Positions 24,489-60,845 of a stretch of DNA of 64,000 nucleotides are shown here, piece by piece. The notes below the pieces were generated by a model. The model ran no database searches. It had not been told where the DNA came from and saw nothing but the letters and a program-made list of their open reading frames with translations. Made by a program: the position numbers and the translations under genes. Location: NCBI GenBank assembly GCA_034440375.1, contig JAWXBZ010000105.1:2269-66268 (forward strand), read 5' to 3'. How positions within the stretch are numbered: the first letter of the stretch is position 1; each line of letters starts with the position of its first letter. The stretch comes from Candidatus Eiseniibacteriota bacterium (lineage in GTDB: Bacteria > Eisenbacteria > RBG-16-71-46 > JABDJR01 > JAWXBZ01).

Positions 24489-27062
24489 ATGAGATCGGGC
24501 AACGGCCGGACCGTGACCAGAATCCAGATTCCATTTCGCGCCATCGTCCTCCTGGCATGCGTCCTGCTGCCTGCTGCCCTTCCCGCCCCCGCAGTCGCCT
24601 CGGAACCCTGGATGTGGGATCAGGACGAGGACGGCATCGACGATCGACTGACGGCCACATTCCAGCAGGGGATTTCCGCCGCCTACGAGAATGGCGATCC
24701 GGAAGGCCGGCTGCGGTTCGACGTATCAACTCTGAACAACGCGCTCCAGTACGGCGGCTACATCCTGTATGACCACCCGCCGACCACGCTTGACAGCCTG
24801 GCCCTGGCAGGCGCCGGCGCCGAGGTCATCACGCGGTTCATCTCGGTGCCCTACATCCGCGTGCGGGCACTCTACCCGAGCCTGGTCGCCATTGCCGCCC
24901 AACCCGGCGTGGAGCGCGTCGAAGCGGTGACGCTGATGTTCCCCACCAACTGGAGGACCACCGGTGCCGTCGGCATCCGAGGTGGCGGAAGCGGCGCGGC
25001 TCCGGCACTTCACGAACTCGGTGGCCCCACCGGCAGTGGCTCGGTCGTGGCGATTCTCGATACGGGAATCAATGACACGCCGATCGGTGCCTATCCCGGC
25101 CATTCCGACATTGCCGGAAAAGTACTGGGGGGCAGCTCCTACTCCGGACCCGGCCCACTCGGTTACACGAACTGGGGATCCAGCGTCAATCCGGCCCAGT
25201 CGACGCCCGGCCTGTCGAGCTACCACGCCACCCACGTCGCGGGGACCATCGCCGGAGCCGGCCGCGACCGAACATTTGGCGGCATGGCGCCCGACGCGCG
25301 ACTGGTCGACGTCAAGGTGCTGGATGACTCTGGAACGGGGTACGGCCTGGCGGAGGGGCTTGAGTGGTGTCTCCAGAACCGGACCCGCGTCTGGGACCCC
25401 ACGCACACGGGCATCGACGTCATCAACCTGAGTCTCACCTCGATCGATCCCTCGGACGGTCAGGATTGTGTCTGCCGGCTGGTCAATGCCGCCGCCGCCA
25501 GTGGAATCGTTGTCGTGGCCGCCGCCGGCAATGATGGTCGTTGTAAATTCATCCCCGCGCCAGGTGCCGCGGATCAGGCCATCACCGTCGGTGCCCTCGA
25601 TCTGGATGTCGCATCGGCATCGAGCCGGCCGGCGCTCGCCACCTTTTCCAACGACGGTCCGCGAAACGACGACCTGGATGGCGGTCACGCCGACGAACTG
25701 AAACCCGACCTGGTGGCACCGGGCACCCAGATCGCCGCCGCCTGGGGCGCCCCGCTCGGCACGGGCCAGGGTTGGCGCCGGAGCAGCGGGACGAGCATGG
25801 CGGCTGCCACCGTTTCGGGCGTGGTGGCCCTGCTTCGCGAGACCAGCCCCACCGCGTCGCCCGATCAGATCCGAGAGATACTCCGCCGGACGGCCCGGCA
25901 CCGGACCGACACCACCCTCGGTTGTTCCATCGGCGCCGATCCGTACGGGATCGAGCCGGACTGGCGGGCCGGCTTCGGCTTCGGCGAACTGGATGCCCTC
26001 GCCGCCTGGGAAGAGCTGGTTCATGAGACAACCACCCAGTATGTAAACCTGTCAGCGGAGTTCCAGGCCGGTTCGGGTGAGATCGAATTCGCCTGGACCA
26101 CGCAGCGGGAGTCCGGAACCACCAGTTTCCTGGTCGAGCGGGCCGATGATCTGGGCGGCGCACCGGGAACATTCACGCCGGTTTCGCCGGCTGTTCCGGC
26201 GGTCGGCTTTTCCAATCTCGCCCTGGGCAACCGGACGACCTATCTCTGGTCCGACCCGGTGCCGGCCGGTCGCAAATTCTGGTACCGGGCGCGTACGCTG
26301 GGCGGCCCCACGACCATATCGTCGTCGATCCCGGCTCGAAGCGAGGACCCCATAGGGCGTGCGGAGATCACCTTCTGGCACAACCGCCCGGAACTCGATT
26401 GGACGATGCAGTTCGGTTCCGGTCCCTGGATTGCCCCGCCGGATTGGAGCTCACCCCTGGCGATCGACGCGGACCTGAACTCCGCAGCACCCTTGCCCAG
26501 CGCCGATCCCGAGGACAAGTACCAGGGGATCCTGGTTCGATCCCTCTATGCCAGCGACATCCCCGCGTGGCTCCTGCCTCCGTCTGCATCCCACCCCTGG
26601 TGGTTCGAAACCCTGGAAGGCAACTCGCCCGATCATTCGGGGCTGGTCACCGACTTCCGAATTGTGGTGGGGATGACTCTGTACCAGTCGTCAGACCCGA
26701 TGCCACAGTTGACCATCGAGGGTTCGCCCACCGTTGTTGTCATCCCGACGATCACCATCTCGGGGACGATGGCCAATGGGGCACCGGACGCCGGGCCCCG
26801 TTGGCTGCGCGTGCGGGTCAACCCGGCCCGTGGCCCGGTTCAACTGAACCTTCCGCCTGGCAGCGATGCCTCGACCCTGACCATTCTTGATATCCAGGGA
26901 CGCATCGTGCGCCGCTTGCCGATTCCGGCTACGGCTGGTGAGTCCGTCGTCACCTGGGACGGGAGCAATGAGTCCGGCGAGGAGACGCCCTCCGGCCGCT
27001 ATTTCGCTCGGCTCGACGATGGCACCACGCGACAGGTTGTGGGCGTGGTCCGGATTCGCTGA
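24489..27062 (+). CDS. Secreted S8-family serine peptidase (subtilisin-like) with a C-terminal T9SS type-A/FlgD-Ig-like domain
   Basis: Signal peptide; catalytic triad motifs VVAILDTGIND (Asp), HATHVAGTIAG (His) and SGTSMAAATVSGVVALL (Ser); C-terminal tail TLTILDIQGRIVRRL...SGRYFARL.... Confidence 0.8.
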   Translation: MRSGNGRTVTRIQIPFRAIVLLACVLLPAALPAPAVASEPWMWDQDEDGIDDRLTATFQQGISAAYENGDPEGRLRFDVSTLNNALQYGGYILYDHPPTTLDSLALAGAGAEVITRFISVPYIRVRALYPSLVAIAAQPGVERVEAVTLMFPTNWRTTGAVGIRGGGSGAAPALHELGGPTGSGSVVAILDTGINDTPIGAYPGHSDIAGKVLGGSSYSGPGPLGYTNWGSSVNPAQSTPGLSSYHATHVAGTIAGAGRDRTFGGMAPDARLVDVKVLDDSGTGYGLAEGLEWCLQNRTRVWDPTHTGIDVINLSLTSIDPSDGQDCVCRLVNAAAASGIVVVAAAGNDGRCKFIPAPGAADQAITVGALDLDVASASSRPALATFSNDGPRNDDLDGGHADELKPDLVAPGTQIAAAWGAPLGTGQGWRRSSGTSMAAATVSGVVALLRETSPTASPDQIREILRRTARHRTDTTLGCSIGADPYGIEPDWRAGFGFGELDALAAWEELVHETTTQYVNLSAEFQAGSGEIEFAWTTQRESGTTSFLVERADDLGGAPGTFTPVSPAVPAVGFSNLALGNRTTYLWSDPVPAGRKFWYRARTLGGPTTISSSIPARSEDPIGRAEITFWHNRPELDWTMQFGSGPWIAPPDWSSPLAIDADLNSAAPLPSADPEDKYQGILVRSLYASDIPAWLLPPSASHPWWFETLEGNSPDHSGLVTDFRIVVGMTLYQSSDPMPQLTIEGSPTVVVIPTITISGTMANGAPDAGPRWLRVRVNPARGPVQLNLPPGSDASTLTILDIQGRIVRRLPIPATAGESVVTWDGSNESGEETPSGRYFARLDDGTTRQVVGVVRIR

Positions 27063-27184
27063 TCAAACGAACCTGGCTGTTGCTACCCCTCCTGGATGCA
27101 TGAACGGATCCATGTTCAATCATTTTATGTAAGTTAATTGTTTTCAACAAGATGTGGCCTTCCGGCTTGAATTAAATCCCGGTT

Positions 27185-27206
27185 ACTCAATACCCACTCA
27201 ATACCC
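27185..27206 (+). promoter_or_regulatory. Perfect 11-bp tandem direct repeat ACTCAATACCC x2 in an AT-richer intergenic region
   Basis: Read directly from the sequence. It lies about 75 bp upstream of the ATG at 27282. Direct repeats with one-helical-turn periodicity are the usual binding-site architecture for OmpR/SARP-type winged-helix regulators, established for Streptomyces SARPs. Confidence 0.4.
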
Positions 27207-27281
27207 CCCCGACAAACTTCCTCCTGTCAGTCACCCAGAGCCGGATGGCTGGTCCGATGGCCCCACCGAGGAGGTTTCAAG

Positions 27282-27854
27282 ATGCATCGCTTGACGTGCA
27301 AGGCGAGTCGCGCCGCCCAAATCATCCCACTGGTCCTGGTGGCCGGGGCGATGGCGCTGTCGATTCAAGCATTTCGATCCGGATCAACCGACAACTCCGG
27401 AGTGACGCCCGCCCTTGTCACTCCGAATTACGAAGTCTCGACCTGCAACCTGCGTCATCCGATCGAAGCCCGGCTGGTGCCGCAGGGCGCAATGACCCGG
27501 GGCGGCACGGTGCGCGTGGCGCTCGAGGTTGAGGCCACGGTGTCCCTTTCCGCCGCCGAGGCCCGAATCCTCTCCAGCGGCGGGGCCACGATTCTCGGAC
27601 GTCAGCGGGCCGAACTCGGAACACTCGACGCCGGTGATGTCCGGCGCATCGAGTTCACCCTGCGTCTTCCGGAGAACGGCCGGCGGTTCGTTCTACAAGT
27701 TCTGACCACCGGCGAATCAACCACCGGCCCGATGAATCGTCTGGCGATGCTGAACATCCTGCCCGACGGCCCGGCCGATCCGGGGCAGGTCGTGACAACC
27801 CCCACCGGCGAATCGATCCGCCAGTACGCCTCGAGCGGGCGGAGGATCAACTGA
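27282..27854 (+). CDS. Hypothetical secreted protein
   Basis: Signal peptide (IIPLVLVAGAMALSIQA). The stop overlaps the downstream ATG (TGATG), indicating translational coupling with the large exoprotein gene. Confidence 0.45.
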   Translation: MHRLTCKASRAAQIIPLVLVAGAMALSIQAFRSGSTDNSGVTPALVTPNYEVSTCNLRHPIEARLVPQGAMTRGGTVRVALEVEATVSLSAAEARILSSGGATILGRQRAELGTLDAGDVRRIEFTLRLPENGRRFVLQVLTTGESTTGPMNRLAMLNILPDGPADPGQVVTTPTGESIRQYASSGRRIN

Positions 27855-30800
27855 TGCGCCTCCTCGATCGCCTCCGTCATGGGAAGGGCTGTCCGAACAA
27901 GTCCTTCGCCTACCTCATCGCCCTGATCATCCTGATCACGCTCGTCGCGACCCTCGTGCTCACCTCCTTCGTCACGTCCGCCGAGGCCGCCTTCACGGCC
28001 AGCGGCCGCTTCCTGTATGCCGACAAGCTCTGGGACAAGGACGGCTACACGGGTCAGGAACAGAACCTGCCCATCCGCCACGCGCGGGTCGAAATCGTCG
28101 ATGTTCCGTCGCTCCAGGTGATCGGATCCGGCGTTGCCGACGCCGACGGCAATTACTCGATCACGGTCACGCCACTGGCGCCGATCGTGCCGGTCAACGT
28201 GGTAGCTCGTGTCCTGACCGACGGGCGCACCGCCGGCTACGAAATTCGTATCGTCGACGAACTGACGCGCGGCCTGGGTGAGCCCGCCGTCATCGGCAAC
28301 ATTCACGCCGTCCTCAACGATCCGGTCCTGAATCACAACCAGGCCCAGCCGCTCAATTTCGGCACGTTTCTACTCGAGGATCCGGACGGCACGGGTGTGG
28401 CCCAGGCCTTCAACATCTTTGACTGTGCCGTGGATTACTTCGACTGGATGGCCCAGCCGGGCCTCTTGAACCGGCTGCCGAATGCCACCGAATACGTCAT
28501 TTTTGCGTGGTCGCCGACCAGCTCCAATGAGGGTTCCAACTACAGCGGCCACGCAATTCTTCTGGCATCCCCAGGCCAGGGGAACGACACGGACGCCTGG
28601 TCCGACACGGTCATCCTCCATGAAACCGGCCACTGGTTCGATGACTTTTTCTCGAGGTCGGACAATCCTGGCGGCCCGCACGGGATAGGTGACAACAACG
28701 CCAATGTGCTGCTGGCCTATGGTGAAGGTGTGGCCACGTTTCACTGCGCCAAGGTCCGCAAGCTCCGGGCCACCACCCGCCTGAACCTGATCGCACAGCC
28801 GATCGACAGCCACGTCAGCATCTACGGCGACCTGATGATTCCGCCCGATTCGATGATGGCCGGCGGCCTGTCGTTCTCCTACGACTTCGAGACCGGCGTC
28901 GTCTTCCAGCCGGGCCTGCCGCCGGGTGGCTTCTTTATCGGCCAGCGGGGCAGCGCCAACGAAACAAACGTTACCTCGGCCCAGTGGGACCTGGTGGACG
29001 ACGCAGGAACCCCGGATGAAACCCCGGGCGTCGACGACGATCAGGTTGGTGTCAACGATGCCATCCCGTTCGCGATCGAGCGCATCTGGTTGCCCGGCCT
29101 CCCAGCCGGCAATGCGGTCACGATCGAGGACTATTACCAGGGGTGGTACGCCCAGAACGGCGCCAATTTCATGCGCGCCGGCGTGGACGACATCTTCTTC
29201 AACCTGTCGCTGATGGAGTTCTACCCCGACTCGTACGAGCCGGATGGCACCGCGGCGCAGGCAACTTCGATTGCGCCACTGGCCTACTCCGTGACGACTG
29301 GCGCGCACCTGGTCATCAGCGAGATCGACCTCGGCGCCCAGGATGCCGTGGAGGTCTTCAACCCGTCCGACGCCGCGATCGACATGACCGGCTGGCAGAT
29401 CCAGGTGTACGTCAATGGCGACGCCGCCCCGGTGGTCAGCCGCATCTACACGTTTCCAGCCTTCACGCTCGATCCGGGTGAGGCCGTGGCGCTGCTCGAG
29501 CGCGGCGATCCGCTGAACAACGGCGCGCACCACCTCTACGGCGGCAGCACCGTGCCCAACTCGTGGAACGCCTCATGGAACTACGGCCTCGACGGGGCCG
29601 TCGTCCTGCGGGATGCGTCCAGCCAGGCCGTGGACTTTGTGAGCTGGCGACATGGGAACGGCACCCCGAACAGCACCCCGGTACCGTCGGGCACGGCCTT
29701 CACCGGCCTCCTCGACAGTCCCCCAGCGGCATCCAACCTGGCGCGTGACATCAACGGCACGGATACCGATGCCGCGGCCGATTTCACCCCAGAGGACGGC
29801 ACGCTGGCCTCGGCCAACGGCACCTTCTCACGGCATCAGACTCTGTTCGACCTGGGCGATGCCGACCTGATCCGTTTCGACGCCGTGGCCGGCATGCGCT
29901 ACGGCTTCGAGGTCCGGGCATTTTTCAGCGCCAGCGATCCGTTCGTCGAGCTCCTCTCACCGACGGGCGCGATCCTCGGGTCGAACGACAACTCGGACCC
30001 CGGCATCCGGGACGCCCGCATCGATCTCTTCGCCGGAACGACCGGCACTTACTATCTCAAAGTGCGCCACGTCGGTCCGCACACCGACTGGGCGGCCTAC
30101 AACGTGGCGGCCTTCCAGCGTCCGCCGAGCACGACGCTGCTGGCTCCTGGTGGCATCACGGCCACGGCCCAGAATGTCAACAACATCAACGATCCGGTCC
30201 ACCTGGACTGGCTGAACGGGGCGCCCTACGACTCGGTGCGGCTGTATCGCAACGGGGCGCTGCTCCAGACACTCCCGGGCTCCTCGACCAGCTACGACGA
30301 CCTGGCCGACCGCGGTGTGTATACCTATGAAGTTTCGGGTGTCGGCGGGTTGAGCGAAACCGCCAGGGCCTCGACCAACGAATACGCCGGTGTCATCGGC
30401 TGCTTTGTTTCCGAGGACTTCGAGCAGGGGAACGCCAACGACTGGATCAGCCCCCCCAACACATGGGGCGTCACGGCGCTGGCGGAGGGGGGCGTGTTCG
30501 GTTACACGGACAGCCCGGTCGGCACCTCTCGCGGTTGTGCCGGCGTCCTGGAAAGTTGCACCACCTCCACCCCGACCGTCCTCCGAGTCCCGGTTCGGCT
30601 CCCGCCCAATTCGCACCTCATGTTCGACCAGATCTGCATCACCGAACATTGCGCACCGACGCCATGCGATCTCGGCATCGTCGAGATCTCCACGGACGAG
30701 GGAACCAGCTGGACGGAAATCGCCCGCTACGATCAGGCCAGCGATCCGGCCTGGACCGACAATGTGGCTGATCCGACCGACTGGCGGCCCGCGGATCTCT

Positions 30801-31237
30801 CACTGGACGATTTCATCGGACAGCAGATCCTGGTCCGTTTCCGGGTTCAGACAGATCCGCTGGCGGAGCTGGACGGCTGGTATCTCGACAATGTCCGGGT
30901 CAACGAGGGTGATTGCACGCTGGCCGCCGTCGGGCCGGCGGCCGGTGCCGCGGGCCTCACCGGTTTGATGGCACCGTATCCCAATCCAATGACCGGCACC
31001 GCCCGGTTCGCGTTCCAACTGGCCACACCGGTGACAAACGTCTCGATGTCGGTTTATGACATCTCGGGTCGCCTCGTCCGCCGTGAGTCACTCGGCCATC
31101 TCGATACCGGCACGCACGCCTGGCTCTGGGACGGTCGCGGCGATTCCGGAAGCGAGACAGCCAACGGTGTCTACTTTGCCCGGCTCGAAGCCGCCGGCAA
31201 ATCGTTCACGCAGAAGGTTCTTAAAGTCACGCGGTAG
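27854..31237 (+). CDS. Large secreted multidomain protein: HExxH zincin-like segment, lamin-tail domain, pre-peptidase C-terminal domain and a C-terminal T9SS type-A/FlgD-Ig-like domain
   Basis: N-terminal TM/signal anchor. VILHETGHWFDD is an HExxH motif. HLVISEIDLGAQDAVEVFNPSDAAIDMTGWQIQV is a lamin-tail domain. DADLIRFDAVAGMRYGFEV...GTYYLKVRH is a PPC-like domain. C-terminal tail VSMSVYDISGRLVRR...NGVYFARL. Confidence 0.6.
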   Translation: MRLLDRLRHGKGCPNKSFAYLIALIILITLVATLVLTSFVTSAEAAFTASGRFLYADKLWDKDGYTGQEQNLPIRHARVEIVDVPSLQVIGSGVADADGNYSITVTPLAPIVPVNVVARVLTDGRTAGYEIRIVDELTRGLGEPAVIGNIHAVLNDPVLNHNQAQPLNFGTFLLEDPDGTGVAQAFNIFDCAVDYFDWMAQPGLLNRLPNATEYVIFAWSPTSSNEGSNYSGHAILLASPGQGNDTDAWSDTVILHETGHWFDDFFSRSDNPGGPHGIGDNNANVLLAYGEGVATFHCAKVRKLRATTRLNLIAQPIDSHVSIYGDLMIPPDSMMAGGLSFSYDFETGVVFQPGLPPGGFFIGQRGSANETNVTSAQWDLVDDAGTPDETPGVDDDQVGVNDAIPFAIERIWLPGLPAGNAVTIEDYYQGWYAQNGANFMRAGVDDIFFNLSLMEFYPDSYEPDGTAAQATSIAPLAYSVTTGAHLVISEIDLGAQDAVEVFNPSDAAIDMTGWQIQVYVNGDAAPVVSRIYTFPAFTLDPGEAVALLERGDPLNNGAHHLYGGSTVPNSWNASWNYGLDGAVVLRDASSQAVDFVSWRHGNGTPNSTPVPSGTAFTGLLDSPPAASNLARDINGTDTDAAADFTPEDGTLASANGTFSRHQTLFDLGDADLIRFDAVAGMRYGFEVRAFFSASDPFVELLSPTGAILGSNDNSDPGIRDARIDLFAGTTGTYYLKVRHVGPHTDWAAYNVAAFQRPPSTTLLAPGGITATAQNVNNINDPVHLDWLNGAPYDSVRLYRNGALLQTLPGSSTSYDDLADRGVYTYEVSGVGGLSETARASTNEYAGVIGCFVSEDFEQGNANDWISPPNTWGVTALAEGGVFGYTDSPVGTSRGCAGVLESCTTSTPTVLRVPVRLPPNSHLMFDQICITEHCAPTPCDLGIVEISTDEGTSWTEIARYDQASDPAWTDNVADPTDWRPADLSLDDFIGQQILVRFRVQTDPLAELDGWYLDNVRVNEGDCTLAAVGPAAGAAGLTGLMAPYPNPMTGTARFAFQLATPVTNVSMSVYDISGRLVRRESLGHLDTGTHAWLWDGRGDSGSETANGVYFARLEAAGKSFTQKVLKVTR

Positions 31238-31288
31238 GTTTCACCTCGCGACGTCGGGGGTCTGACGGTCACGGCTCTGGCCGGCAGG

Positions 31289-31309
31289 CCCCCGGCTCGC
31301 GGGGGTTTA
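31289..31309. terminator. GC hairpin (CCCCCG-GCTCG-CGGGGG) followed by TTTA, lying between convergent genes
   Basis: Read from the sequence. The hairpin has a 6-bp stem and the T tract is weak. Confidence 0.3.
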
Positions 31310-31924
31310 TCGAGATGGCGAAACTGGGTGGAAAACAAGGATGTCGGCGGCATCCCTGAGCAGGTCAATCCGTTGGACCTCGACCCGAAGCGCCGCCATT
31401 CCCGTTTTCAAATGGATGTCGGCCAGAAGCTTTGCCTCGTTGCCCGGCTGCAGCAATTCGAGATGGTCATAGATCATCGGCGTCGACTGCAGCGAGTCCT
31501 TCCAGGGGCGCAACTCGATGGCAGCCACCATCCCGACAACGACTCCGTTAACGACGAGTATCTCCATCATGCTGACACTACCGTTGGCAACCCCGTTAAG
31601 AAGGCCGAGTCCAATGACGATGAACAGGTAGGTGAGATCTCGAATGCGGATCTGTTCCGTGCGATATCGCAGGATGCCGAACACGCCGAACAGCGCCAGC
31701 GCAAAACCGAGCTCGGTCGGCACCTTGCGTAGCAGAAGACACAGGAAGAGCGTCACCACGTTGAACAGGTAGTAGGTGAATACGTACTCACGATTTCGGT
31801 ACAGGCGGTAGTAGATCAGGCGAATCACGACGCTCGCGAACGCAAGATCAAGCACAAACCGCACCAGCAACTTGCTCATTTCGGACCAATCCGCGAAAAT
31901 ATCACCACCAGGAATCGTGTTCAT
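31307..31924 (-). CDS. DUF4956-domain membrane protein
   Basis: Multi-TM protein (YVFTYYLFNVVTLFLCLLL, LGFALALFGVFGILRYRTE) with a C-terminal soluble region. It overlaps the VTC gene stop by 4 bp. Confidence 0.55.
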   Translation of the reverse strand: MNTIPGGDIFADWSEMSKLLVRFVLDLAFASVVIRLIYYRLYRNREYVFTYYLFNVVTLFLCLLLRKVPTELGFALALFGVFGILRYRTEQIRIRDLTYLFIVIGLGLLNGVANGSVSMMEILVVNGVVVGMVAAIELRPWKDSLQSTPMIYDHLELLQPGNEAKLLADIHLKTGMAALRVEVQRIDLLRDAADILVFHPVSPSR

Positions 31925-32733
31925 TCCGCTCGTCCTTCCAGTGCCCGGAGGCCGGGCAACAATGCGTTCAGGCGCACACCGGGATGGGTCAAGGCAATCC
32001 CGGTGCAGTACTTGCTCGTCCAGCCTGGCCGGCAACCGGACTCCCTCAGCGCCGACATGACCGGGGTTCCACGTCCGTATGGCCACTGCTTCACCTCAAC
32101 GATGACGATGCCGGACAGCGATGCGTGGCGCTGCCCCATTTCCATTCGTACATCGAAATCAAGGGTCACGCGCTCGCAAGTCTCAAGGCCCAGGAGTGTC
32201 AGCCGCCGAAAGTGAGTCCAGACCTGAGGGAGAACACCCCGGTCAATCCCGGTGTGGATGGCCACGAAGTCCTGGTCATCAGCGCTCAACTCGTTGCCGC
32301 CAAACGGATGCTCGCGGGAGAGCTTGGTCGTTTTCAATTTGCTCCGCCGTGTCTTGACTTCGAGCATCGTCAGGCTGCGATCCGGGTAGTGCCGAACGCG
32401 TGCCTTGTGCCGCACCCGGCGGCCGCGCCGATGCGCGTGGAAGAAATCGAGCTCCGGGGTGTCGAAGTACAGCGTCTGGTAAGTCGCGACGAGCTCGGTA
32501 CCGGCGGTCAGCACGGCGTAATCCCCCGTGATCGCGCGGACGAGGTCGGCCGCTGACGCCGGAGACAGGACAAACTTGGTGTCCGTCCGTCGCCGCAGCT
32601 CACGCCGGGCAATGAGTTCCGGCGTCGCCACCGGAAAACAGCTGAGCAGGGCCTGCCACTCCCCGCCTGCCATCGAAGCAGCCTTAGTATCTGACCTGGG
32701 TCCAGGCATAGAACTTGTCATCCTGTCGCGCAC
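31921..32733 (-). CDS. VTC-domain (CYTH-like, polyphosphate-polymerase-type) protein
   Basis: YFDTPELDFFHAHRRGRRVRHKARVRHY...LEVKTR...VIVEVK matches the bacterial VTC/CYTH tunnel-fold domain. The start is uncertain; the ATG at 32733 or an internal start are both possible. Confidence 0.6.
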   Translation of the reverse strand: MRDRMTSSMPGPRSDTKAASMAGGEWQALLSCFPVATPELIARRELRRRTDTKFVLSPASAADLVRAITGDYAVLTAGTELVATYQTLYFDTPELDFFHAHRRGRRVRHKARVRHYPDRSLTMLEVKTRRSKLKTTKLSREHPFGGNELSADDQDFVAIHTGIDRGVLPQVWTHFRRLTLLGLETCERVTLDFDVRMEMGQRHASLSGIVIVEVKQWPYGRGTPVMSALRESGCRPGWTSKYCTGIALTHPGVRLNALLPGLRALEGRAE

Positions 32734-33820
32734 CGTCCCTCAACTCGCGAAGCTCGTAGTTCAGCATCAGGCGCCATGGTTTCTTCGGAAGCCCGTAATA
32801 GGCGCCGAGAGTCCAGCGCTTGAAGTCATCATCAAGCGTGTCGTATCGAACGATGGGGCCGACCTGGGCCTCCGTCTTGCCGACCAGGTTCACGTAGTAA
32901 CCCGACGGATCGTTCATCTCGCCGGTCTCCACGATCTCGTCCGAGCCACGCACGTATTCGGCGCTGATGAAGAATCGCGGGTGGTCGAGTTCCACGTCGA
33001 CACCAAGTCGTTTGAACTTGATCTGCATTTTCTCCTCCCCCAGCAGAAGATCGGCCGGCTCAATGAAATCACCGGAAGCCCCGGAGACTCCGAACCTTGC
33101 CGTCAGGTTTTCCGGGTCGGATTTCCATCGAAGCCCGACGCGCCCCCACAGGCTCATGCGCGCCGTATTGTCCTCCTGCACATTCAATCCGGCGCCGTTG
33201 ACGATGGTGATGGTATCCTCAAAACGGAACCCTTTCGGCCCGAGTTTGACGTTGCCCATCAGGCCGATCCCAATATCCCGCAGATTGACACCGCGCGACA
33301 GGGCGTCGGACAGCTCCGTTCGATTCACCGCGTACAGATTGGTGGATGACTCCGTGTTTTCGTATCCGAACTGCGTTTTCTGCTGGCCGACCCGAATGTC
33401 GTGTCGGGGAATCACTTTGAAATCGACGTACGCATCCCGGAGTATTCCCGTGACTTCCGGAGCTCGTGGATCGATCTCGATGTTGTAGGAGAGCCACTCG
33501 GAAATGTCGCCCTTGACGCCGATACGGACCCTTTGAACACGATAATTGTCGTTGTCGACTAAGGGGTCGTCGCCGGTCATCAATGAATACTTGTAGTGAA
33601 TCTGCATGAACCCGAAAACTTCCGGAGGCTTCAACCCCCGTCGTTTCGATGACCTGGGCTGGTCCGCCGCGCCGGAAATCTTCGGGTCGACGCGGGTGGA
33701 ATCGACTGCGCCGACGGAACTGTCCATCTGCGCATGACCGACTCCGCACCACAACACGATCACGCTGGCCGCGATGGTCGCCGTCCTTCGCATTGGATTG
33801 ATCGAACGCGTCAAGGACAT
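32684..33820 (-). CDS. Phosphate-selective porin O/P family outer-membrane protein
   Basis: Signal peptide MSLTRSINPMRRTATIAASVIVLWCGVGHAQ, a beta-barrel pattern with a C-terminal aromatic residue (...YAWTQVRY), and similarity to the OprO/OprP family. Confidence 0.6.
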   Translation of the reverse strand: MSLTRSINPMRRTATIAASVIVLWCGVGHAQMDSSVGAVDSTRVDPKISGAADQPRSSKRRGLKPPEVFGFMQIHYKYSLMTGDDPLVDNDNYRVQRVRIGVKGDISEWLSYNIEIDPRAPEVTGILRDAYVDFKVIPRHDIRVGQQKTQFGYENTESSTNLYAVNRTELSDALSRGVNLRDIGIGLMGNVKLGPKGFRFEDTITIVNGAGLNVQEDNTARMSLWGRVGLRWKSDPENLTARFGVSGASGDFIEPADLLLGEEKMQIKFKRLGVDVELDHPRFFISAEYVRGSDEIVETGEMNDPSGYYVNLVGKTEAQVGPIVRYDTLDDDFKRWTLGAYYGLPKKPWRLMLNYELRELRDGARQDDKFYAWTQVRY

Positions 33821-34034
33821 GAAGCGCACCTCCGGAAAAGGACGACTGCCAGGCCATGTGTCACCGAACGACACCCCCGGAGGCTCGCAATCAATCTGCG
33901 GCCCGGCCGAAAAATCAACGCGAGCATGTGTCAGGGGCAAGAAAGGAACACACCGCCGCCCGGTTTGTGACATGGATGATTCCGCGGGTGAACCGGGGCC
34001 CCTGGTGCCGGAAGGGTGATACATTTGCCAGTCC

Positions 34035-34622
34035 ATGGTCACACGAACCCAACGGGGCCGGGAGGCCCGAGTCGAGCCCCCCTATCTCCGGGACGCCGAG
34101 CTTTTGAAAGCCTGCCGACTGGGAGATGACGCCGCGTGGCGTGAACTGATGCGTCGCTACCGCGATCTCATCTATTCGATCCCGAGGCGGTACGGGCTCG
34201 ATGCGGACGACACGGCCGATGTCTTTCAGATTGTCATTGCCGCCCTCTGGAAGGGTCTGGCCGAGCTCCGTTCGGAGAAGGCGCTGACGCGATGGATCCA
34301 GGTGACCACCCGGCGCCAGAGTCAGCGCCAGGCGGAAAAGATTCGGCGGCATGCCTCCGTGGACGTACTGGCTCGACAGCCGGACCCGGATTTGCTCGTG
34401 TCCGAGAGGCTCCATGCGGCCGAATCGGCCCACCGCGTCCGGCGGGAGCTGGATCGGCTTGGGAGTCGTTGTCGGGAGATCCTGACCCTCCTGTACATGG
34501 AAGAGCCTCCCATGGGATATGACGAGGTTGCGCGGCGCATGGGATTGCCCCGCGGTTCGATCGGCCCAACGCGGGGCCGTTGCCTGGACAAGCTTCGGGC
34601 ACTCATGGGAAAAGACTTGTGA
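34035..34622 (+). CDS. RNA polymerase ECF-type sigma-70 factor
   Basis: Region 2 (RELMRRYRDLIYSIPRRYGLDADDTADVFQ) and region 4 (ILTLLYMEEPPMGYDEVARRMGLPRGSIGPTRGRCLDKLR). Confidence 0.8.
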   Translation: MVTRTQRGREARVEPPYLRDAELLKACRLGDDAAWRELMRRYRDLIYSIPRRYGLDADDTADVFQIVIAALWKGLAELRSEKALTRWIQVTTRRQSQRQAEKIRRHASVDVLARQPDPDLLVSERLHAAESAHRVRRELDRLGSRCREILTLLYMEEPPMGYDEVARRMGLPRGSIGPTRGRCLDKLRALMGKDL

Positions 34623-34677
34623 GGAAGTATCCGATCGGGGGCCGGCGGTACCTTCCGGCTGGTAATGGGAGGAGACC

Positions 34678-35313
34678 ATGTCCGTGAAAAGGATTGACGT
34701 CGGCGCAAAGACCGGGCACCCGGAAACGGGTGAGCTGCTGGATCAGCTTGAAGGACGGCTGGCTTTGGACCGACTCCGGGAAGTTGCGACGCACGTGCTG
34801 GCCTGCCGACGCTGCCAAAGGTCGATTGAGGAGCTGAAGCGCGTAACCAACTCGCTCGGCGCATCGACACTGGAGTCGCCCCCGGAGTGGCTGGCGAACT
34901 GGGCGGACGATCGGCCGCGGGATCAGCCGAAAAAGGTTCCGAAGGGTCTGATGCCAATCCTGAGGCTGGTCCTCGATTCATGGCGTCTCGAACCGCTGGG
35001 GGCTCGCGGGGTCGCCCCTTCCAGCCGCCGTCTCCTCTATCGGGCCGGCTCGGTCGATCTGGATATTGAACTAGACCTGGGACGCGCGGGCCGGACGGCC
35101 ACGGTTCGGGGCCAGATTCTTGATGCCACCGTGACCGGTGGGCGACAGTTCTCGGAAGGGCACGTTCGGTTACTCGCCGGCCGGCGGCTCGTGGTCAAGG
35201 TGCCGCTCGGCACCCGGGGAGACTTCCGGCTGAGCGACGTGCCCCGCCGCGTCTACCACCTGAATATCGCGGCGGCCGGATTCCGGGTTCGAGTCGATTC
35301 ATTCGAGATATGA
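34678..35313 (+). CDS. Putative zinc-binding (ZAS-type) anti-sigma factor, soluble
   Basis: H-x3-C-x2-C motif (HVLACRRCQ) near the N-terminus, immediately downstream of the ECF sigma gene. No evident TM helix. The stop overlaps the next gene's start (ATGA). Confidence 0.55.
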   Translation: MSVKRIDVGAKTGHPETGELLDQLEGRLALDRLREVATHVLACRRCQRSIEELKRVTNSLGASTLESPPEWLANWADDRPRDQPKKVPKGLMPILRLVLDSWRLEPLGARGVAPSSRRLLYRAGSVDLDIELDLGRAGRTATVRGQILDATVTGGRQFSEGHVRLLAGRRLVVKVPLGTRGDFRLSDVPRRVYHLNIAAAGFRVRVDSFEI

Positions 35314-38111
35314 CCCTGTCCGTTCGCGTCGGCGCGCTGGAGCGCGACCTCTTGAACAGCCGGGGTGATGCCATCCGACCGGCCCATTTCAAAAAATACC
35401 TGGCCTCGCTCCAGCGGACCACGCGTCGCGATCCATTGAAAGCTGAGTCCGCATCGAGCCGGGCCATGCTGGTTGCCCGGGCCGTGGGCGATGGCGTCGC
35501 GCTGGCGCATCTGCAGCGGGCACGGGCCCACGCGCGTCGCGCGAGTAACCGATGGCCGGAGGCGGCCTCGGACTATCGCGCGGCTCTCAAGCGATTTCAG
35601 GATCTGGATCGGGCGGACGAATGCGCGTTCACCCGTATCGGCCTGATTGATGCCCTCATGTACCTCGGGCGCTACGAGGATGCCCTGTTTGAGGCGCACG
35701 CGGCGCGACGAACGGTCCAAAGGCTTGGCGATCCGATTCGCGGCGCCCGCATCGAAAACAACATCGGAAACATTCACCATCGGCGCGATGACCTCGAAAC
35801 GGCCATCCAATGGTATGACCGCGCGCGGCGGACATTTCGGCGGCGGCACGACGACTCCGCGCTGGCATTGGTTGAGTTCAACCGCGGAAACGTGCTCGGG
35901 CCGATGGGGCGCACCGCCGAGGCGCGGATCGCCTACGAAACCGCCGGGGCCATTTTTTCCCGGCAGGGCTTCACGGACCGGACGGCCCAGGTGCGGTACA
36001 ACCTGGCCTACCTTCGCTTTCTCGAAAACCGGTTGCCGGAGGCTCTCGAGGAGTTGGAGCAGGTCCGCGTGACCTTTCAGGCGACGGGCGATGAACGTCA
36101 CCTCGGCCTGACGCGACTCGATGAGTCTGAGATCCTTCTCCGCCTGAATCTTTGGGATGACGCCGGAGAAGCGGCTACCGAAGCCATCCGCCGGCTGAAG
36201 GCACTCGGTCTCGACTACGAGCGGGCGAAAGCCCTCACGTTCCTGGCCCTGGCCACGGCCCGTCGAGGCGATCCGTCGGAGGCGGCGGGCCTGCTGGACT
36301 CGGCCCGCGAACTTTTCAAGACGGAAAAAAACCGCTGGTGGGTCGGTGAGACCAGCCTTCAGCTGGCCCGATTGGCTGTCGGTCGAGGTGCCTGGTCAGA
36401 GGCACGGCTGGAAGCGCAGCGGGCACGCCGGACGTTCGCCCGAAGAATATCCAACGAAGCGCTGGGGCGGGCCCTGCTGATCGAAGCGGAGGCGGCCCGC
36501 GGAGCCGGCCGCAGGGCCCAAGCCGGGCGCACGCTGGAGGCGGCGCTTCAGGCCGCCCGGCGGAGTCGCTCGCCCTGGCTCACGGCGGAAGTTCGCGAGT
36601 TGGCGGGACTCCTGGCACTTGACCGGGGCGATGCTGCGACGGCACGGCGCCACTTCAACCAGGCCATCAAGGCCATTGAACAGCTTCGTGCATTGCTCTC
36701 CGGTGACGACCTCCGGGCGGGGTTTCTGCGCGAGCGGGATCGCCCCTATCTGGAATTGGCCCGTCTCGAACTCGTGGCCGGCCGGCCGCGACAGGCGTTC
36801 GAACTATTCGAACGCGGGCGGGCGCGGGCCCTGCTCGACCTCCTGACGGACATGCCGGCGGGAAAGCGGGCACCAGGCAAGGGTCGCAGGAAATTGGAGA
36901 CACGAGCCAGGCACCTGCTGTCGGAATTGGGGCGCCGTTATCACGAAGACGACGTCGCCGAATCGTCCGGCCAACGACAGTGGACCAGCGCCGGAATATC
37001 CGAAGCGCGGGAATCGCTCGAGGCGGAAGCGGCCCGGCTTCTGCGTCGCGTGGATCAAAGCCCTGGTTCGATCGCCGGGCGGCGTCCCGGTCTCGGCGAG
37101 GTGCAACGTCTCCTTCGTCCCGGCGAAACCCTTCTTTCTTTCCACGAAATCGGCGGCCGGGTCGGGGTATTTCGGATTACCCGGACCCGCTTCGACTCGG
37201 TGCCGGACCTGGCCGGCGCGGCCGACATCGAGAGGCTGGCGGAATCGCTGCGATTTCAGTGGGGGCGGTTCCGCTTCGATGCGGAATTACTGGCACGCCA
37301 CGGCGCTCAGTTGGAAAGCATGGCCCGGAGCGATCTTCGGCGCCTTCATGAGCTCTTGATCTCACCCTTTGATTCTCCCTCGGAGAAGGGGCCGCTGATC
37401 ATCGTTCCGACGGCTGGACTTCGCTCGGTCCCTTTTTCCGCACTCGACGACGGAACGGCGTGTCTGGCCCGGAGGCGGGCCATCGTCGTGTCGCCCAGTG
37501 CGGCGGTCTGGAGCCGTTGCCGGACCCACGAGACGGGCGATGGGGGCCTTGAGAGGGCCGTGCTCATTGGTATCCCCGACAAGCGGGCTCCGCAGGTTGC
37601 CGACGAAATACGGGAGTTGGCCGGGCGGCTACCGGGTGCCCGGGTATTCCTCGGTTCGGAGGCAACGGCGCACCAATTTCTGGCATCCCTGCCGAAGGCC
37701 TCGATCTTGCATGTAGCCACGCATGGCATGTTCCGTACCGATCGCCCGAACCTGTCGGGAGTCCGACTGTCCGATCGATGGGTCTACGGCTATGAAGTTG
37801 CCCGGGGAATGATGCGGGCCCGCCTGGTCGTGCTATCGGCCTGCGTGACCGGGCTTTCCGCCGCCTGGGCCGGCGGCGATTGGATGGGCCTGGCCCGATC
37901 CTTTCTGACCGCGGGAGCCCGCCGGGTTCTGGTAGGCCTCTGGGATGTCGATGACGATGCCACCCGGCAATTGATGGGACATTTTTACCGCTTTCTGATC
38001 AACGAAGGGCATCTGCCGGCGGAAGCGCTGGCCCGGGCCCAGGCCGAAATGGCGTCCAGCGGCTGGCACCCGTACTACTGGTCCGGCTTTTCGCTCATGG
38101 GAGATCTGTGA
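35310..38111 (+). CDS. TPR-repeat CHAT-domain protein (caspase-like His/Cys peptidase)
   Basis: About 600 aa of TPR-like repeats followed by a CHAT domain (LIIVPTAGLRSVPFSAL...ASILHVATHGMFR...ARLVVLSACVTGL...WSGF) with a His/Cys dyad. Confidence 0.75.
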   Translation: MTLSVRVGALERDLLNSRGDAIRPAHFKKYLASLQRTTRRDPLKAESASSRAMLVARAVGDGVALAHLQRARAHARRASNRWPEAASDYRAALKRFQDLDRADECAFTRIGLIDALMYLGRYEDALFEAHAARRTVQRLGDPIRGARIENNIGNIHHRRDDLETAIQWYDRARRTFRRRHDDSALALVEFNRGNVLGPMGRTAEARIAYETAGAIFSRQGFTDRTAQVRYNLAYLRFLENRLPEALEELEQVRVTFQATGDERHLGLTRLDESEILLRLNLWDDAGEAATEAIRRLKALGLDYERAKALTFLALATARRGDPSEAAGLLDSARELFKTEKNRWWVGETSLQLARLAVGRGAWSEARLEAQRARRTFARRISNEALGRALLIEAEAARGAGRRAQAGRTLEAALQAARRSRSPWLTAEVRELAGLLALDRGDAATARRHFNQAIKAIEQLRALLSGDDLRAGFLRERDRPYLELARLELVAGRPRQAFELFERGRARALLDLLTDMPAGKRAPGKGRRKLETRARHLLSELGRRYHEDDVAESSGQRQWTSAGISEARESLEAEAARLLRRVDQSPGSIAGRRPGLGEVQRLLRPGETLLSFHEIGGRVGVFRITRTRFDSVPDLAGAADIERLAESLRFQWGRFRFDAELLARHGAQLESMARSDLRRLHELLISPFDSPSEKGPLIIVPTAGLRSVPFSALDDGTACLARRRAIVVSPSAAVWSRCRTHETGDGGLERAVLIGIPDKRAPQVADEIRELAGRLPGARVFLGSEATAHQFLASLPKASILHVATHGMFRTDRPNLSGVRLSDRWVYGYEVARGMMRARLVVLSACVTGLSAAWAGGDWMGLARSFLTAGARRVLVGLWDVDDDATRQLMGHFYRFLINEGHLPAEALARAQAEMASSGWHPYYWSGFSLMGDL

Positions 38112-38204
38112 TGCGCCGTGACGATTGGGCTGGCCACCGGCCGGGGGGGGCCTGTACTCTTTGATTCCCGCCAAGGACTCATGCCGCCGAAAGGGAATTC
38201 TGTC

Positions 38205-39548
38205 ATGACATTCTCATTTCCCACCGCGCGGGCCGCGCTTTCGCTTGGCATCGGTCTGGCCCTGGCACTCCCGGGCTGCGGCCAGGACACTCTCGAGGAA
38301 TCGCCCCGGGTTGACAGTTACGCCGCCAGAACCGGCGGCCTCCTGACCGACGACTTCGACAGTGACGAAATCCTGGCGATCGTGGACCCAAATTTCGACC
38401 CCGGCACCATCGCCATCGAACACGGGCTGCTGCTGGTCGATGAACTGCCGGACGGACTCTCGACACGCTTTCGAGTGCCAGCCGGGGGCGTCCTGGCGCA
38501 GGAGGAAGCCGAACTGGCGCTCGATCCGCGCGTTCTCGGCGTCGACAGGAACCTCTTCGTCATCGACACCGAGACGCGACAATCGAGCATGGCCTTCGAC
38601 GAGGGCAATTTTGTGGAAGGCGCCGTCGGTGACCAGGGCTTTCTGCGCCTGCTCCACGTGGCCCGGGCGCACGATCGCACCCGGGGCGATGGGGTGGTCG
38701 TTGCCATTCTTGATACGGGAATAGACTTCAGCCATCCGGCCCTGGCCGGGCACATTCATCCGGCGAGTCGTGACTTCCTCGACGGCGACACCGACGCCTC
38801 CGAATCCCCCAACGGCATTGATGACGATGGCGATGGATTCATCGACGAGGCCCTGGGTCATGGCACGCATGTGGCCGGACTCGTCCGCCTGGTGGCCCCG
38901 GAAGCCAAAATCATGGTCCTTCGGGTCCTGGACGCCGATGGGCGGGGCCCGGCCTGGGGCGTAGCGCAGGCAATCGAATATGCCGCTGATCAGGGCGCGT
39001 CGATCATCAACATGAGCCTCGGCATGTTGAGCAAACCCGAGATCATGGATGAGGCTCTCAGCTACGCGGCCGACCGGGGTGTGATCATGGTCGGCTCGAT
39101 CGGCAACTGGGGGGCGGAGGATCCGGAGGAGTACCCTTCGTCCAGCAGCTCGGTCTGGGCTGTCGTCGCCACGGATCACGAGGATCGGGCCGCCACGTTC
39201 ACGAGCTATTCCAGCCACGCCGCGATCGCCGCCCCGGGAACCCTGATCCGCAGCGCCCACTATGGCGGCGGCTCGGCCGTCTGGAGCGGCACGTCGATGG
39301 CCTCACCGCTGGTGGCGGGCACTGCGGCGCTTCTCCTCTCCATTCACGCCGATTGGACGCCCGCCATGGTCCTGGCGCGTATCCAGTCCACCGCCCGGCC
39401 GGTTACTCCCCTGCATTCGGAACAGATTGGCGAACTGGGCGCCGGCCGGATCGACGTGGGAGCAGCCCTCGCGGCCGATCAGCACGACGGCACCGCAAAC
39501 GACGATGGCGAGGGCGAGGTGTACTGGAATCGTCGAACCCGGCGCTGA
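38205..39548 (+). CDS. S8-family serine peptidase lipoprotein
   Basis: Lipobox LALALPGCGQ; VVVAILDTGID (Asp), HGTHVAGLV (His), GTSMASPLVAGTAALL (Ser). It lies 7-90 bp downstream of the CHAT gene, depending on which start is used. Confidence 0.8.
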   Translation: MTFSFPTARAALSLGIGLALALPGCGQDTLEESPRVDSYAARTGGLLTDDFDSDEILAIVDPNFDPGTIAIEHGLLLVDELPDGLSTRFRVPAGGVLAQEEAELALDPRVLGVDRNLFVIDTETRQSSMAFDEGNFVEGAVGDQGFLRLLHVARAHDRTRGDGVVVAILDTGIDFSHPALAGHIHPASRDFLDGDTDASESPNGIDDDGDGFIDEALGHGTHVAGLVRLVAPEAKIMVLRVLDADGRGPAWGVAQAIEYAADQGASIINMSLGMLSKPEIMDEALSYAADRGVIMVGSIGNWGAEDPEEYPSSSSSVWAVVATDHEDRAATFTSYSSHAAIAAPGTLIRSAHYGGGSAVWSGTSMASPLVAGTAALLLSIHADWTPAMVLARIQSTARPVTPLHSEQIGELGAGRIDVGAALAADQHDGTANDDGEGEVYWNRRTRR

Positions 39549-39620: not shown

Positions 39621-39707
39621 CCGATTGTGTATCCCGTGTCCACCGGACCGTACCTTGCCTCCATGCATCGCAATGAGGCGTATCCGTTCCGGAACGGTGA
39701 CCGAAAA

Positions 39708-40919
39708 ATGGCACGGCGAATTGCCGCCTACTCGCACGATACCGTCGGACTCGGGCACCTGCGCCGCACCCTGACCATCACCCGCCATCTCGGGGCACGG
39801 CGCCCCGACTTGAACTCGCTCATCATCTCCGGTTCCCCATTCGTCCAGGCGATGGGTTCCTATGATCGAATCGATTTCCTCAAACTCCCCGCGGCGAAGA
39901 AAATTCGGAACGGGCACTACGAAGCCCGGTACCTCGGCCTCGACTTTGATCACTTCAACCGGTTTCGATCAGGCGTCATCGACGAGGGGCTCCGGGCTTT
40001 CGAGCCCGATCTCCTGATCATTGACAAGACGCCGGGGGGGATGAACGGCGAATTGCTTCCCTGTTTGCGGCGCCTTCGGGAGACCGGCGCGCGGACGCGG
40101 GTGGTCCTTGGTCTGCGCGATATCCTGGACGAGGCGCCGAACCAGCGTGCCGAGTGGACGGCCACCGGCGACTGGCAGACGCTCGACGAACTCTATGATG
40201 CGATCTGGATCTACGGCTCGGCGGACGTTTTCAACCCGGTTACCGAGTACGGCTTCAGCGATACCATGGCCGCGCGCACGTCTTTTCTGGGCTACCTCCC
40301 AAAGTACAACGGAATTCGGCCCGTCGAGGCCATCCGGGCTGAACTTGACGCAAAGGATCAGCCGCTCCTGGTCTTGAGCCCCGGCGGCGGCGAGGACGGT
40401 TACGAACTTCTGTCACTCTTTCTCGAAGCGAGGGACGGGGGCTTCCTTCCGACCGGACACCTGCCGGTCCTGGTCACCGGACCAGGCATGCCGGAAGCGC
40501 GCGTGGCCGAACTCCGGCATCGCCTCGGCGCCAACGGCCGATTGCTGGAGTTCAGCGATCATTTCACGTCAATTCTGGCGGCCGCCGACCTGGTGATCAC
40601 CATGGGTGGCTACAACACGCTCACCGAAGCGCTCTGCCTTGGCAAGCGGGTGGTCTCGGTTCCCCGCGTGCGCCCGAGGCGCGAGCAGTGGATACGGGCA
40701 CAGCGATTCGCCGAGCGCGGGCTGCTGACAATGGTCGAGCCGGACGGTGCCTCCCCGGCCACACTCGGCGCCGCGATCCGTCATGAACTCGGCCGCGACG
40801 TGAGCACCGGATGCCTCCCGCTCGATTTCGGGGGCCTGGAACGGCTGGACGACGAATATGCCCGCCTCTTCGACAATGAGATGCCGGCCCTTCAAAGCGA
40901 GTCCGGAGCAACGCGATGA
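39708..40919 (+). CDS. GT-B glycosyltransferase, GT28/MGDG-synthase-like (Glyco_tran_28_C-type)
   Basis: N-terminus RIAAYSHDTVGLGHLRRTLTI and C-terminal ADLVITMGGYNTLTEALCLGKRVVSVPR motif. The ATG at 39708 is preferred over the one at 39627. Confidence 0.55.
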   Translation: MARRIAAYSHDTVGLGHLRRTLTITRHLGARRPDLNSLIISGSPFVQAMGSYDRIDFLKLPAAKKIRNGHYEARYLGLDFDHFNRFRSGVIDEGLRAFEPDLLIIDKTPGGMNGELLPCLRRLRETGARTRVVLGLRDILDEAPNQRAEWTATGDWQTLDELYDAIWIYGSADVFNPVTEYGFSDTMAARTSFLGYLPKYNGIRPVEAIRAELDAKDQPLLVLSPGGGEDGYELLSLFLEARDGGFLPTGHLPVLVTGPGMPEARVAELRHRLGANGRLLEFSDHFTSILAAADLVITMGGYNTLTEALCLGKRVVSVPRVRPRREQWIRAQRFAERGLLTMVEPDGASPATLGAAIRHELGRDVSTGCLPLDFGGLERLDDEYARLFDNEMPALQSESGATR

Positions 40920-47797: not shown

Positions 47798-47815
47798 AGT
47801 TGTCCACACATCAAG

Positions 47816-59184: not shown

Positions 59185-59204
59185 CACTTCAGAGTTCCAG
59201 CATC

Positions 59205-59243
59205 GGGCCGGCGGCGACTTCGATCGCGCCGGCCCTTTTTCTT
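59205..59243 (+). terminator. Rho-independent terminator
   Basis: GGGCCGGCG...CGCCGGCCC stem (9 bp) followed by TTTTTCTT, 20 bp after the NHL gene's stop. Confidence 0.55.
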
Positions 59244-59254
59244 GGCCTGCGGCA

Positions 59255-60804: not shown

Positions 60805-60845
60805 GACTCGTGGCAGGATCGGCCATTGCGATAAATGAAATTCCC

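Follow-up and report, generated by a model that had tools for sequence, protein, structure and literature searches.

The 64-kb window analysed here, the whole stretch of Candidatus Eiseniibacteriota DNA under study (G+C ~64%), which derives from a metagenome-assembled genome, carries on its minus strand three consecutive genes for a Porin_O_P porin, a VTC-domain protein and a DUF4956 membrane protein, whose open reading frames (ORFs) together span the interval 31307-33820 exactly (Table 1). An earlier note, made from the sequence alone, had described these three ORFs on one strand and a 4-bp overlap of the VTC and DUF4956 reading frames, and both are present (the shared bases are ATGA). It had also placed the porin gene 50 bp upstream of the VTC gene on the same strand: the strand is right, but the porin stop lies 10 nt from the VTC ATG, and 50 nt is instead the length by which the longest VTC ORF (GTG start, 31921-32733) overlaps the porin gene. 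The ATG at 32673, and with it the 10-nt spacing, is indicated by a 100%-identical 250-aa NCBI protein that uses the same start, by the N-termini of VTC homologues, and by gene calls made independently by JGI and Logan on this organism's contigs, where the proteins likewise measure 378, 250 and 205 aa, the gap is 10 nt and the overlap 4 nt. At NCBI, Candidatus Eisenbacteria entries match the VTC and the DUF4956 protein with 100% identity, as a JGI/Logan entry does the porin. With a hairpin after the DUF4956 stop and a 214-bp region ahead of the porin, the genes look like a self-contained three-gene operon, hereafter the triad. The families named in the earlier note held up in profile searches, VTC, DUF4956 and Porin_O_P all scoring above their Pfam gathering cut-offs.

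Table 1. Features of the triad, its surroundings in the window, and related proteins and loci mentioned in the text
Feature	Position or identifier	Strand	Details
Porin_O_P porin	33820..32684	-	378 aa; GGAGG 8 nt ahead of ATG
VTC-domain protein	32673..31921	-	250 aa; ATG start at 32673
DUF4956 membrane protein	31924..31307	-	205 aa
Upstream region	33821..34034	-	214 bp, common to the porin gene and the divergent ECF sigma gene; promoter presumed
GGAGG	33833-33829	-	ahead of porin ATG
TGACACATG 9-mer, two copies	33863-33855 and 33933-33925	-	35 and 105 nt before porin start
Stem-loop	31244..31304	-	directly 3' of DUF4956 stop, within the 69 bp that separate it from the convergent gene 27854-31237
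ECF sigma, 211-aa putative anti-sigma (weak CarboxypepD_reg match) and 933-aa TPR-CHAT protein	34035-38111	+	divergent from triad
ECF sigma and anti-sigma pair	34035-35313	+	divergent from triad
Subtilase	38118-39548	+	after TPR-CHAT gene
Polysaccharide-type cluster	39627-53051	+	begins ~6 kb from triad
DUF4956 fusion proteins	P0382, P0435, P0469, P0510		internal signal peptide or lipobox kept between parts
PPDK_N lipoprotein loci	L033, L041, L043, L045, L046, L053, L054, L056, L059		Kofleriaceae and relatives

The 250-aa protein matches Pfam VTC (PF09359) at 6.8e-20 and 72.1 bits against a gathering cut-off of 23. VTC is the sole Pfam family reported at E<=0.01, the CYTH model giving no match; no NCBIfam model matched, and the identical NCBI protein is named 'polyphosphate polymerase domain-containing protein'. 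From the Pfam match and an AlphaFold2 (AF2) model, the protein comprises the tunnel domain alone, soluble and without an SPX or transmembrane domain, and thus does not have the eukaryotic architecture of SPX, tunnel and C-terminal three-helix DUF202. The AF2 model, built on 32 homologues, has a predicted local distance difference test score (pLDDT) of 92.6. In a Foldseek search of the PDB the catalytic domain of yeast Vtc4 ranks first (3g3r; E 1.5e-11, TM score 0.61), and the top nine matches are all Vtc4 entries, including chains from cryo-electron microscopy (cryo-EM), at E 1.5e-11 to 1.5e-9 and TM scores of 0.53-0.62. Vtc2/3 rank next, followed by E. coli ygiF (9.3e-9) and other tunnel enzymes. 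Assignment to the VTC family and to no other CYTH subfamily, as the earlier note had it, is therefore upheld by both Pfam and fold.

Sequence similarity to the yeast protein is faint: the 250-aa sequence by itself retrieved nothing from the PDB, a first subfamily profile yielded no more than a weak match to Vtc2, and alignment to Vtc4 needed a broadened VTC profile (A4). In that alignment, for which the native Vtc4 numbering was verified at R264, R266, K281, Y359, R361, S457 and K458, the correspondences are K33=K200, R92=R264, R94=R266, K107=K281, R157=R361, R168=R373, S220=S457 and K221=K458. Seven of nine key Vtc4 residues are kept, K458 included, and K33, R92, R94, K107, R157, S220 and K221 are invariant or at least 90% conserved in the bacterial clade; the conserved tunnel Lys/Arg residues anticipated in the earlier note are thus present. 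For the metal-binding E426, E193-x-K195 can be equated with E426-x-K428 just from residue order and pattern, as HMMER left this stretch unaligned. The aligned residues are the triphosphate ligands needed for polyphosphate (polyP) synthesis in a cryo-EM study of the VTC complex, and K458 is the one residue that is changed (to I or L) in the inactive Vtc2/3 (10.1101/2023.01.27.525886).

These data also bear on a reading of the triad as a system for uptake and breakdown of condensed phosphate, in which the porin would admit pyrophosphate (PPi) or polyP, DUF4956 would import it, and the VTC protein would act as a tripolyphosphatase or polyphosphatase. E. coli YgiF-type CYTH/triphosphate tunnel metalloenzyme (TTM) triphosphatases share the tunnel fold and the acidic/basic strand motif with the VTC protein, bacterial tunnel enzymes such as ygiF give significant fold matches, and Tyr359, needed for full polymerase output by Vtc4, is usually Phe in the bacterial clade; moreover, porins of this kind occur in uptake-type neighbourhoods with TonB receptors. 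Against this, Pfam and the fold search both place VTC/Vtc4 above the CYTH hydrolases, YgiF scoring below Vtc4, and the Lys equivalent to K458, the mark of a polymerising subunit, is conserved. YgiF-type enzymes are, furthermore, soluble hydrolases with no membrane partner, and the import of a long polyanion that breakdown would require is without precedent to our knowledge. We consider this reading rather improbable, and regard the 250-aa protein as a Vtc4-like putative polyphosphate polymerase with the TTM fold, as profile and model together suggest.

The DUF4956 protein matches its Pfam profile (PF16316) at 1.7e-42 and 145.4 bits against a cut-off of 30.6, over profile positions 1-168 of 169; no NCBIfam model matched. 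Identity is 58-74% among the 120 homologues listed, and 41 columns are invariant in an alignment of 37 sequences, whose signature is a conserved Arg-rich loop, GILRYRTEQIRIRD. The AF2 model comprises five transmembrane helices, modelled at a pLDDT of ~70, and a C-terminal alpha/beta domain (approximately residues 145-200) at a pLDDT above 93. Lys and Arg counts are 7.0 on loops 1-2 and 3-4, presumed cytoplasmic, versus 3.5 on the opposite side, and an N-out/C-in topology is favoured by sequence and model. Such a topology would place R86, R88, R93, R95, the GILRYRTEQIRIRD loop and the C-terminal domain in the cytoplasm, on the same side as the VTC protein. An exhaustive DUF4956 profile search returned 1,821 cluster representatives, and four of the best 150 are in-frame fusions, one DUF4956-CotH and three DUF4956-DUF2490 (Table 1). 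They may be genuine fusions or read-through gene calls; if the proteins are real, the signal between their parts implies a cytoplasmic C-terminus for DUF4956. Kinship with Vtc1 (DUF202), or identity with a known channel, was considered and rejected, as sequence and fold searches of the PDB came back empty. By analogy, DUF4956 may nonetheless function like the VTC channel, though outside that family.

The porin begins with an N-terminal Sec signal peptide (...VLWCGVGHAQ) and ends in ...WTQVRY. It matches Pfam Porin_O_P (PF07396) at 3.4e-14 and 53.3 bits against a cut-off of 20.9, the match being confined to porin residues 73-187 and profile positions 6-128 of 370, the N-terminal third. All 32 aligned members of its subfamily match Porin_O_P with similar, modest scores, and their alignment has 20 invariant Arg/Lys columns and an aromatic last residue; NCBIfam gave only a sub-threshold match to an ExtI porin. 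The family membership, a signal peptide, the C-terminal aromatic residue and many conserved arginines are thus shared with P. aeruginosa OprP and OprO, porins selective for phosphate and for pyrophosphate/polyphosphate, whereas the match to the N-terminal third of the model only, and a context other than pst/pho, set the window porin apart. A close relationship to OprP/OprO was rejected at the sequence level by a profile search of the PDB. The earlier note's 'OprO/OprP-type' porin therefore holds for the Porin_O_P family but not for closeness to OprP/OprO. Given the partial Pfam match and the failure to retrieve OprP/OprO, we treat the protein as a remote member of Porin_O_P, judged by sequence, whose phosphate or polyphosphate selectivity is only a family label.

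How far these genes travel together was assessed in 74 loci including the window, drawn from a genome-collection scan and contig look-ups, annotated with purpose-built hidden Markov models (HMMs) and collapsed at 90% VTC identity to 69 non-redundant loci. The related loci come from Eisenbacteria, Gemmatimonadota, Acidobacteriota, Myxococcota, Gammaproteobacteria and Bacteroidota. DUF4956 adjoins VTC in 62 of the 69, most exceptions lying at contig ends, in line with the pairing the earlier note had described as usual. One Myxococcales locus (L030, 7959-9500) may be a natural exception: there a DUF2490 barrel gene comes immediately after VTC, with no DUF4956 detected.

A barrel gene lies within 4 kb of VTC in 54/69 loci. 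It is of the Porin_O_P type in 39 (directly adjacent on the same strand in 24, within 4 kb in another 15) and is a directly adjacent, same-strand DUF2490 gene in 15; linkage to a porin, noted at first for this one locus, is thus conserved across phyla. Of the remaining 15, in which neither barrel type was found, four come from short contigs, and CotH is adjacent or close by in five. Eisenbacteria, Gemmatimonadota and Acidobacteriota almost always have the order porin-VTC-DUF4956 or VTC-DUF4956-porin. In Myxococcota two layouts prevail, based on Pfam annotation of representatives: VTC, DUF4956, a DUF3108-like lipoprotein, a PPDK_N lipoprotein and a porin; or a CotH or DUF3108-like gene, VTC, DUF4956 and DUF2490. 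VTC-DUF4956-DUF2490 occurs in two of three Bacteroidota loci and CotH-VTC-DUF4956 in Cellvibrionaceae. Since the flanking genes vary among the 24 loci with the same gene order, the linkage is selected rather than due to chance. The module may also be mobile between genomes, as the closest relative has the triad between other flanking genes. An Eisenbacteria locus (L005, GCA_013140805, 8001-14922) carries the module twice. In one copy, a DUF4096 transposase-like gene comes after porin and VTC where DUF4956 would be expected; then come a full porin-VTC-DUF4956 copy, PhoU_div and a third porin gene.

Loci were also looked up starting from the porin. Of six, two have VTC, three do not and one is at a contig end. 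The VTC-free loci comprise an ECF (extracytoplasmic function) sigma/FecR/TonB receptor/porin set by metal transporters, a porin alone, and a porin by multihaem cytochromes. The idea that the porin subfamily is dedicated to VTC was accordingly rejected; the subfamily is common to other systems, often in uptake-type contexts.

Beyond the triad itself, related loci carry recurrent neighbours. CotH accompanies VTC-DUF4956 in 14 of them, and in Kofleriaceae and relatives the gene between DUF4956 and the porin encodes a lipoprotein, ~660-900 aa long, whose C-terminal domain is PPDK_N (ATP/AMP-binding). An ATP-grasp-type PPDK_N enzyme that is apparently exported is unusual. Together with a PAP2 phosphatase, these recurrent neighbours point to phosphate chemistry outside the cytoplasm.

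From the protein families, the fold, the conserved catalytic residues and the gene linkage, we postulate that the operon is an envelope-spanning phosphate/polyphosphate module in which polyP synthesis is coupled to export. The cytoplasmic VTC protein, acting as a Vtc4-type tunnel enzyme, would convert the gamma-phosphate of ATP into polyP while docked on DUF4956, a five-helix inner-membrane protein that is probably an oligomer. The Arg-rich loops and the C-terminal domain of DUF4956, facing the cytoplasm, would take the growing chain into or across the inner membrane, making DUF4956 a functional analogue, not a homologue, of the yeast Vtc1/3/4 channel. The Porin_O_P barrel would then provide an outer-membrane route for anionic orthophosphate (Pi), PPi or polyP. 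The 4-bp overlap of the VTC and DUF4956 genes and their adjacency in 62 of 69 loci speak for tight coupling of the two, and PhoU_div and PiT genes near related triads add a link to phosphate. Export is favoured because the membrane partner is obligate, because loci of two-membrane lineages commonly include a barrel gene, with none listed for the Gram-positive sets, and because exported phosphoryl-transfer enzymes recur at these loci. We hold this account tentatively, as our preferred one, and put its prospects at somewhat short of even. The role in envelope phosphate/polyphosphate handling proposed in the earlier note is thus supported in part: VTC identity, pairing and porin linkage are in its favour, while the case for the porin's selectivity and dedication is weaker.

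Comparison with known systems frames this proposal. The triad resembles the yeast VTC complex (Vtc4/Vtc3/Vtc1) in its tunnel-fold catalytic domain, in the retained ligand residues from K200 to K458 listed above, and in that both catalytic proteins are obligately paired with a membrane partner. It differs in lacking the SPX sensor and a fused DUF202, in the change of Y359 to Phe, in a membrane protein (five helices plus a soluble domain) that is unrelated to Vtc1 by sequence and fold, and in its setting within a two-membrane envelope with a porin gene. Gram-positive pel loci list accessory cotH, 'poly-phosphate polymerase', DUF4956 and DUF4832 genes and no barrel gene (PMC7112168). The VTC-DUF4956 core is common to these pel-adjacent sets and the window, but the window lacks CotH and DUF4832, has a porin, and its pair is not contiguous with a pel locus. 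With PPK1/PPK2 (polyphosphate kinases) the VTC protein shares a predicted product, polyP made from a nucleotide triphosphate. The PPK enzymes have a fold unrelated to VTC and make cytoplasmic polyP, and we know of no dedicated membrane or porin partner for them.

Several observations weigh against export-coupled synthesis. First, tunnel enzymes are mostly hydrolases, and the lead of Vtc4 over ygiF in fold score is modest. Second, the position of Y359 is occupied by F155 here and by F or Y across the clade, usually Phe, and a Vtc4 Y359F mutant yields less polyP (10.1101/2023.01.27.525886). Third, DUF4956 has no sequence or fold match in the PDB, the Vtc1/3/4 channel and known channels included, and its transmembrane part is modelled at a pLDDT of only ~70. 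Fourth, the 32-sequence porin profile retrieved no OprP/OprO from the PDB, giving chance matches only (E>0.9), and porins 53-55% identical to the window porin are also found without VTC/DUF4956. The porin is therefore not a dedicated component of the VTC system, and its contexts suit a porin for general uptake no less than an exporter. Lastly, no regulator or phosphate gene in the window ties the operon to a signal, and literature searches yielded no activity data for any bacterial VTC/DUF4956 pair.

The uptake-type contexts of the porin bear equally on storage without export. Here polyP would stay on the cytoplasmic face, DUF4956 would only anchor or regulate the VTC protein and the co-expressed porin would bring in orthophosphate. 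The operon would then serve to acquire and store phosphate, in the manner of the VTC genes of yeast, which are PHO-regulated. The porin's family is named for the phosphate-uptake porins OprP/OprO, its relatives occur in uptake-type loci (TonB receptor, ECF sigma, FecR), and DUF4956 has no recognisable channel fold. In addition, PiT and PhoU_div are close to two related triads: PhoU_div comes directly after DUF4956 in the Eisenbacteria locus with the duplicated module, and PiT and PhoU_div lie ~3-5 kb from the triad of the closest relative. Storage would, however, leave unexplained why DUF4956 is retained in Gram-positive sets, why exported CotH/PPDK_N enzymes and a second barrel type, DUF2490, recur beside the pair, and why the membrane core and Arg-rich loop of DUF4956 are so extremely conserved (41 invariant columns); cytoplasmic polyP, moreover, is already served in bacteria by PPK enzymes. 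We judge storage unlikely, if a serious contender.

Export-coupled synthesis also has a stronger form, namely a polyphosphate secretion system unrelated to PPK, which would be a third route to polyP in two-membrane bacteria. A Vtc4-like polymerase would feed the polymer through DUF4956, a new kind of inner-membrane conduit, and a barrel dedicated to the task, from a Porin_O_P subfamily or of the DUF2490 type, would pass it from the periplasm to the cell surface. There it could bind metal, or could donate phosphoryl groups or energy to exported enzymes of the CotH and PPDK_N type. This stronger form is conceivable, though we would not expect it to prove correct.

The regulators next to related triads raise a further possibility. 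Some triads come after a TonB-receptor-like protein, an ECF sigma factor and a zf-HC2 anti-sigma factor. Others adjoin a two-component system, and in the five loci tested (L003, L011, L019, L022 and L040) the best NCBIfam match of this system is the heavy-metal (Czc/Sil/Cop) subfamily. Kinases score 210-244 bits versus TIGR01386 (curated cut-off 292.55) and the two response regulators tested 237-239 bits versus TIGR01387 (cut-off 279.2), so that all fall short. In Kofleriaceae the regulators are of a generic OmpR type. The matches hint at metal-responsive control of some triads. PhoB/PhoR-type regulation was considered and cannot be claimed, as the sensors adjacent to relatives' triads are heavy-metal-like and sub-cut-off.

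The metal theme recurs in a reading in which VTC-DUF4956 would make polyP for a specific envelope job, such as periplasmic binding of toxic metals or donation of phosphoryl groups to surface polymers, with the porin incidental or co-regulated. Besides the heavy-metal sensor matches at the five tested loci, one porin relative adjoins a P-type ATPase and a CDF exporter, the Gram-positive sets flank pel polysaccharide loci (PMC7112168), and the window itself has, ~6 kb off, a polysaccharide-type cluster with a kinase. This cluster comprises a GT28-like and two GT4 glycosyltransferases, a 902-aa protein with two APH-type phosphotransferase domains, an Alginate_exp outer-membrane barrel, two CarboxypepD_reg/FlgD_ig proteins and an ABC (ATP-binding cassette) exporter; given the pel association of the Gram-positive sets, its nearness to the triad may or may not be meaningful. 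The sub-cut-off scores of the two-component matches and the generic Kofleriaceae regulators count against such a job, as do four unrelated genes between the triad and the polysaccharide cluster; an HMM search of the window, furthermore, finds no such sensor. We give this reading little credence, and retain export-coupled synthesis as our preferred account.

In agreement with the earlier note's statement on the VTC-DUF4956 pair, full-text literature searches yielded no experimental or functional study of the pair and no account of a porin-linked triad. Already known are the database names of the proteins and a VTC-DUF4956-CotH association mentioned in passing; the triad varies the VTC polymerase theme, in that its membrane partner is no homologue of the yeast one and an outer-membrane protein is added. 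Bacterial polyP is attributed to cytoplasmic PPK1 and PPK2, an attribution that does not explain how it gets to the periplasm or surface. The triad is a compact three-gene candidate for polyP reaching the envelope, and six or more bacterial groups have related sets. If the pair does make and export polyP, DUF4956, a family of ~1,800 sequence clusters, would gain a function, coupled polyP synthesis and translocation would have evolved twice with different channels, and the co-encoded exported CotH and PPDK_N-type enzymes would have a plausible phosphoryl source. Should the VTC protein instead prove to hydrolyse polyP or to serve storage, a new unit for phosphate acquisition would nonetheless have been defined, in soil and sediment phyla that have received little study.

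Turning to the flanks of the triad, the stem-loop beyond the DUF4956 gene has a fold energy of -34.2 kcal/mol (z -2.6 versus shuffles). It is, from its sequence, the probable transcription end of the operon, although no T-run follows and it is hence no canonical intrinsic terminator. At the other end, the 9-mer TGACACATG occurs twice in the whole window, both copies lying in the 214-bp region upstream of the porin; in the closest relative (L081) the corresponding region has no copy. A scan of the same region found no sigma-70 consensus promoter, and Rfam had no match in 30500-35000. The divergent sigma/anti-sigma pair is unsupported as the operon's regulator, having no orthology to the pair that precedes relatives' triads, and the closest relative lacks both. 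HMMs for CotH (built from related loci), PPDK_N, DUF2490, two-component systems and TonB receptors found nothing in the window, and a weak ECF-sigma HMM match is the divergent sigma gene.

Base composition dips around the triad: G+C is 0.60-0.62 in 30001-34000 compared to ~0.64-0.68 across most of the window, and the G+C at third codon positions (GC3) of the triad genes, 0.70-0.75, is at the low end of the window's range of 0.70-0.84. Convergent to the triad, 24489-31237 (plus strand) encodes two large secreted proteins with FlgD_ig/Por_Secre_tail C-terminal sorting domains, an 857-aa S8 subtilase and a 1127-aa protein with Lamin-tail and MAM-like domains, which suggest type IX-like secretion in this lineage. 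The remaining window genes are housekeeping or unrelated; among the window's other features is a cluster at 56870-60873, on both strands, of three NHL-repeat (teneurin-like beta-propeller) proteins.

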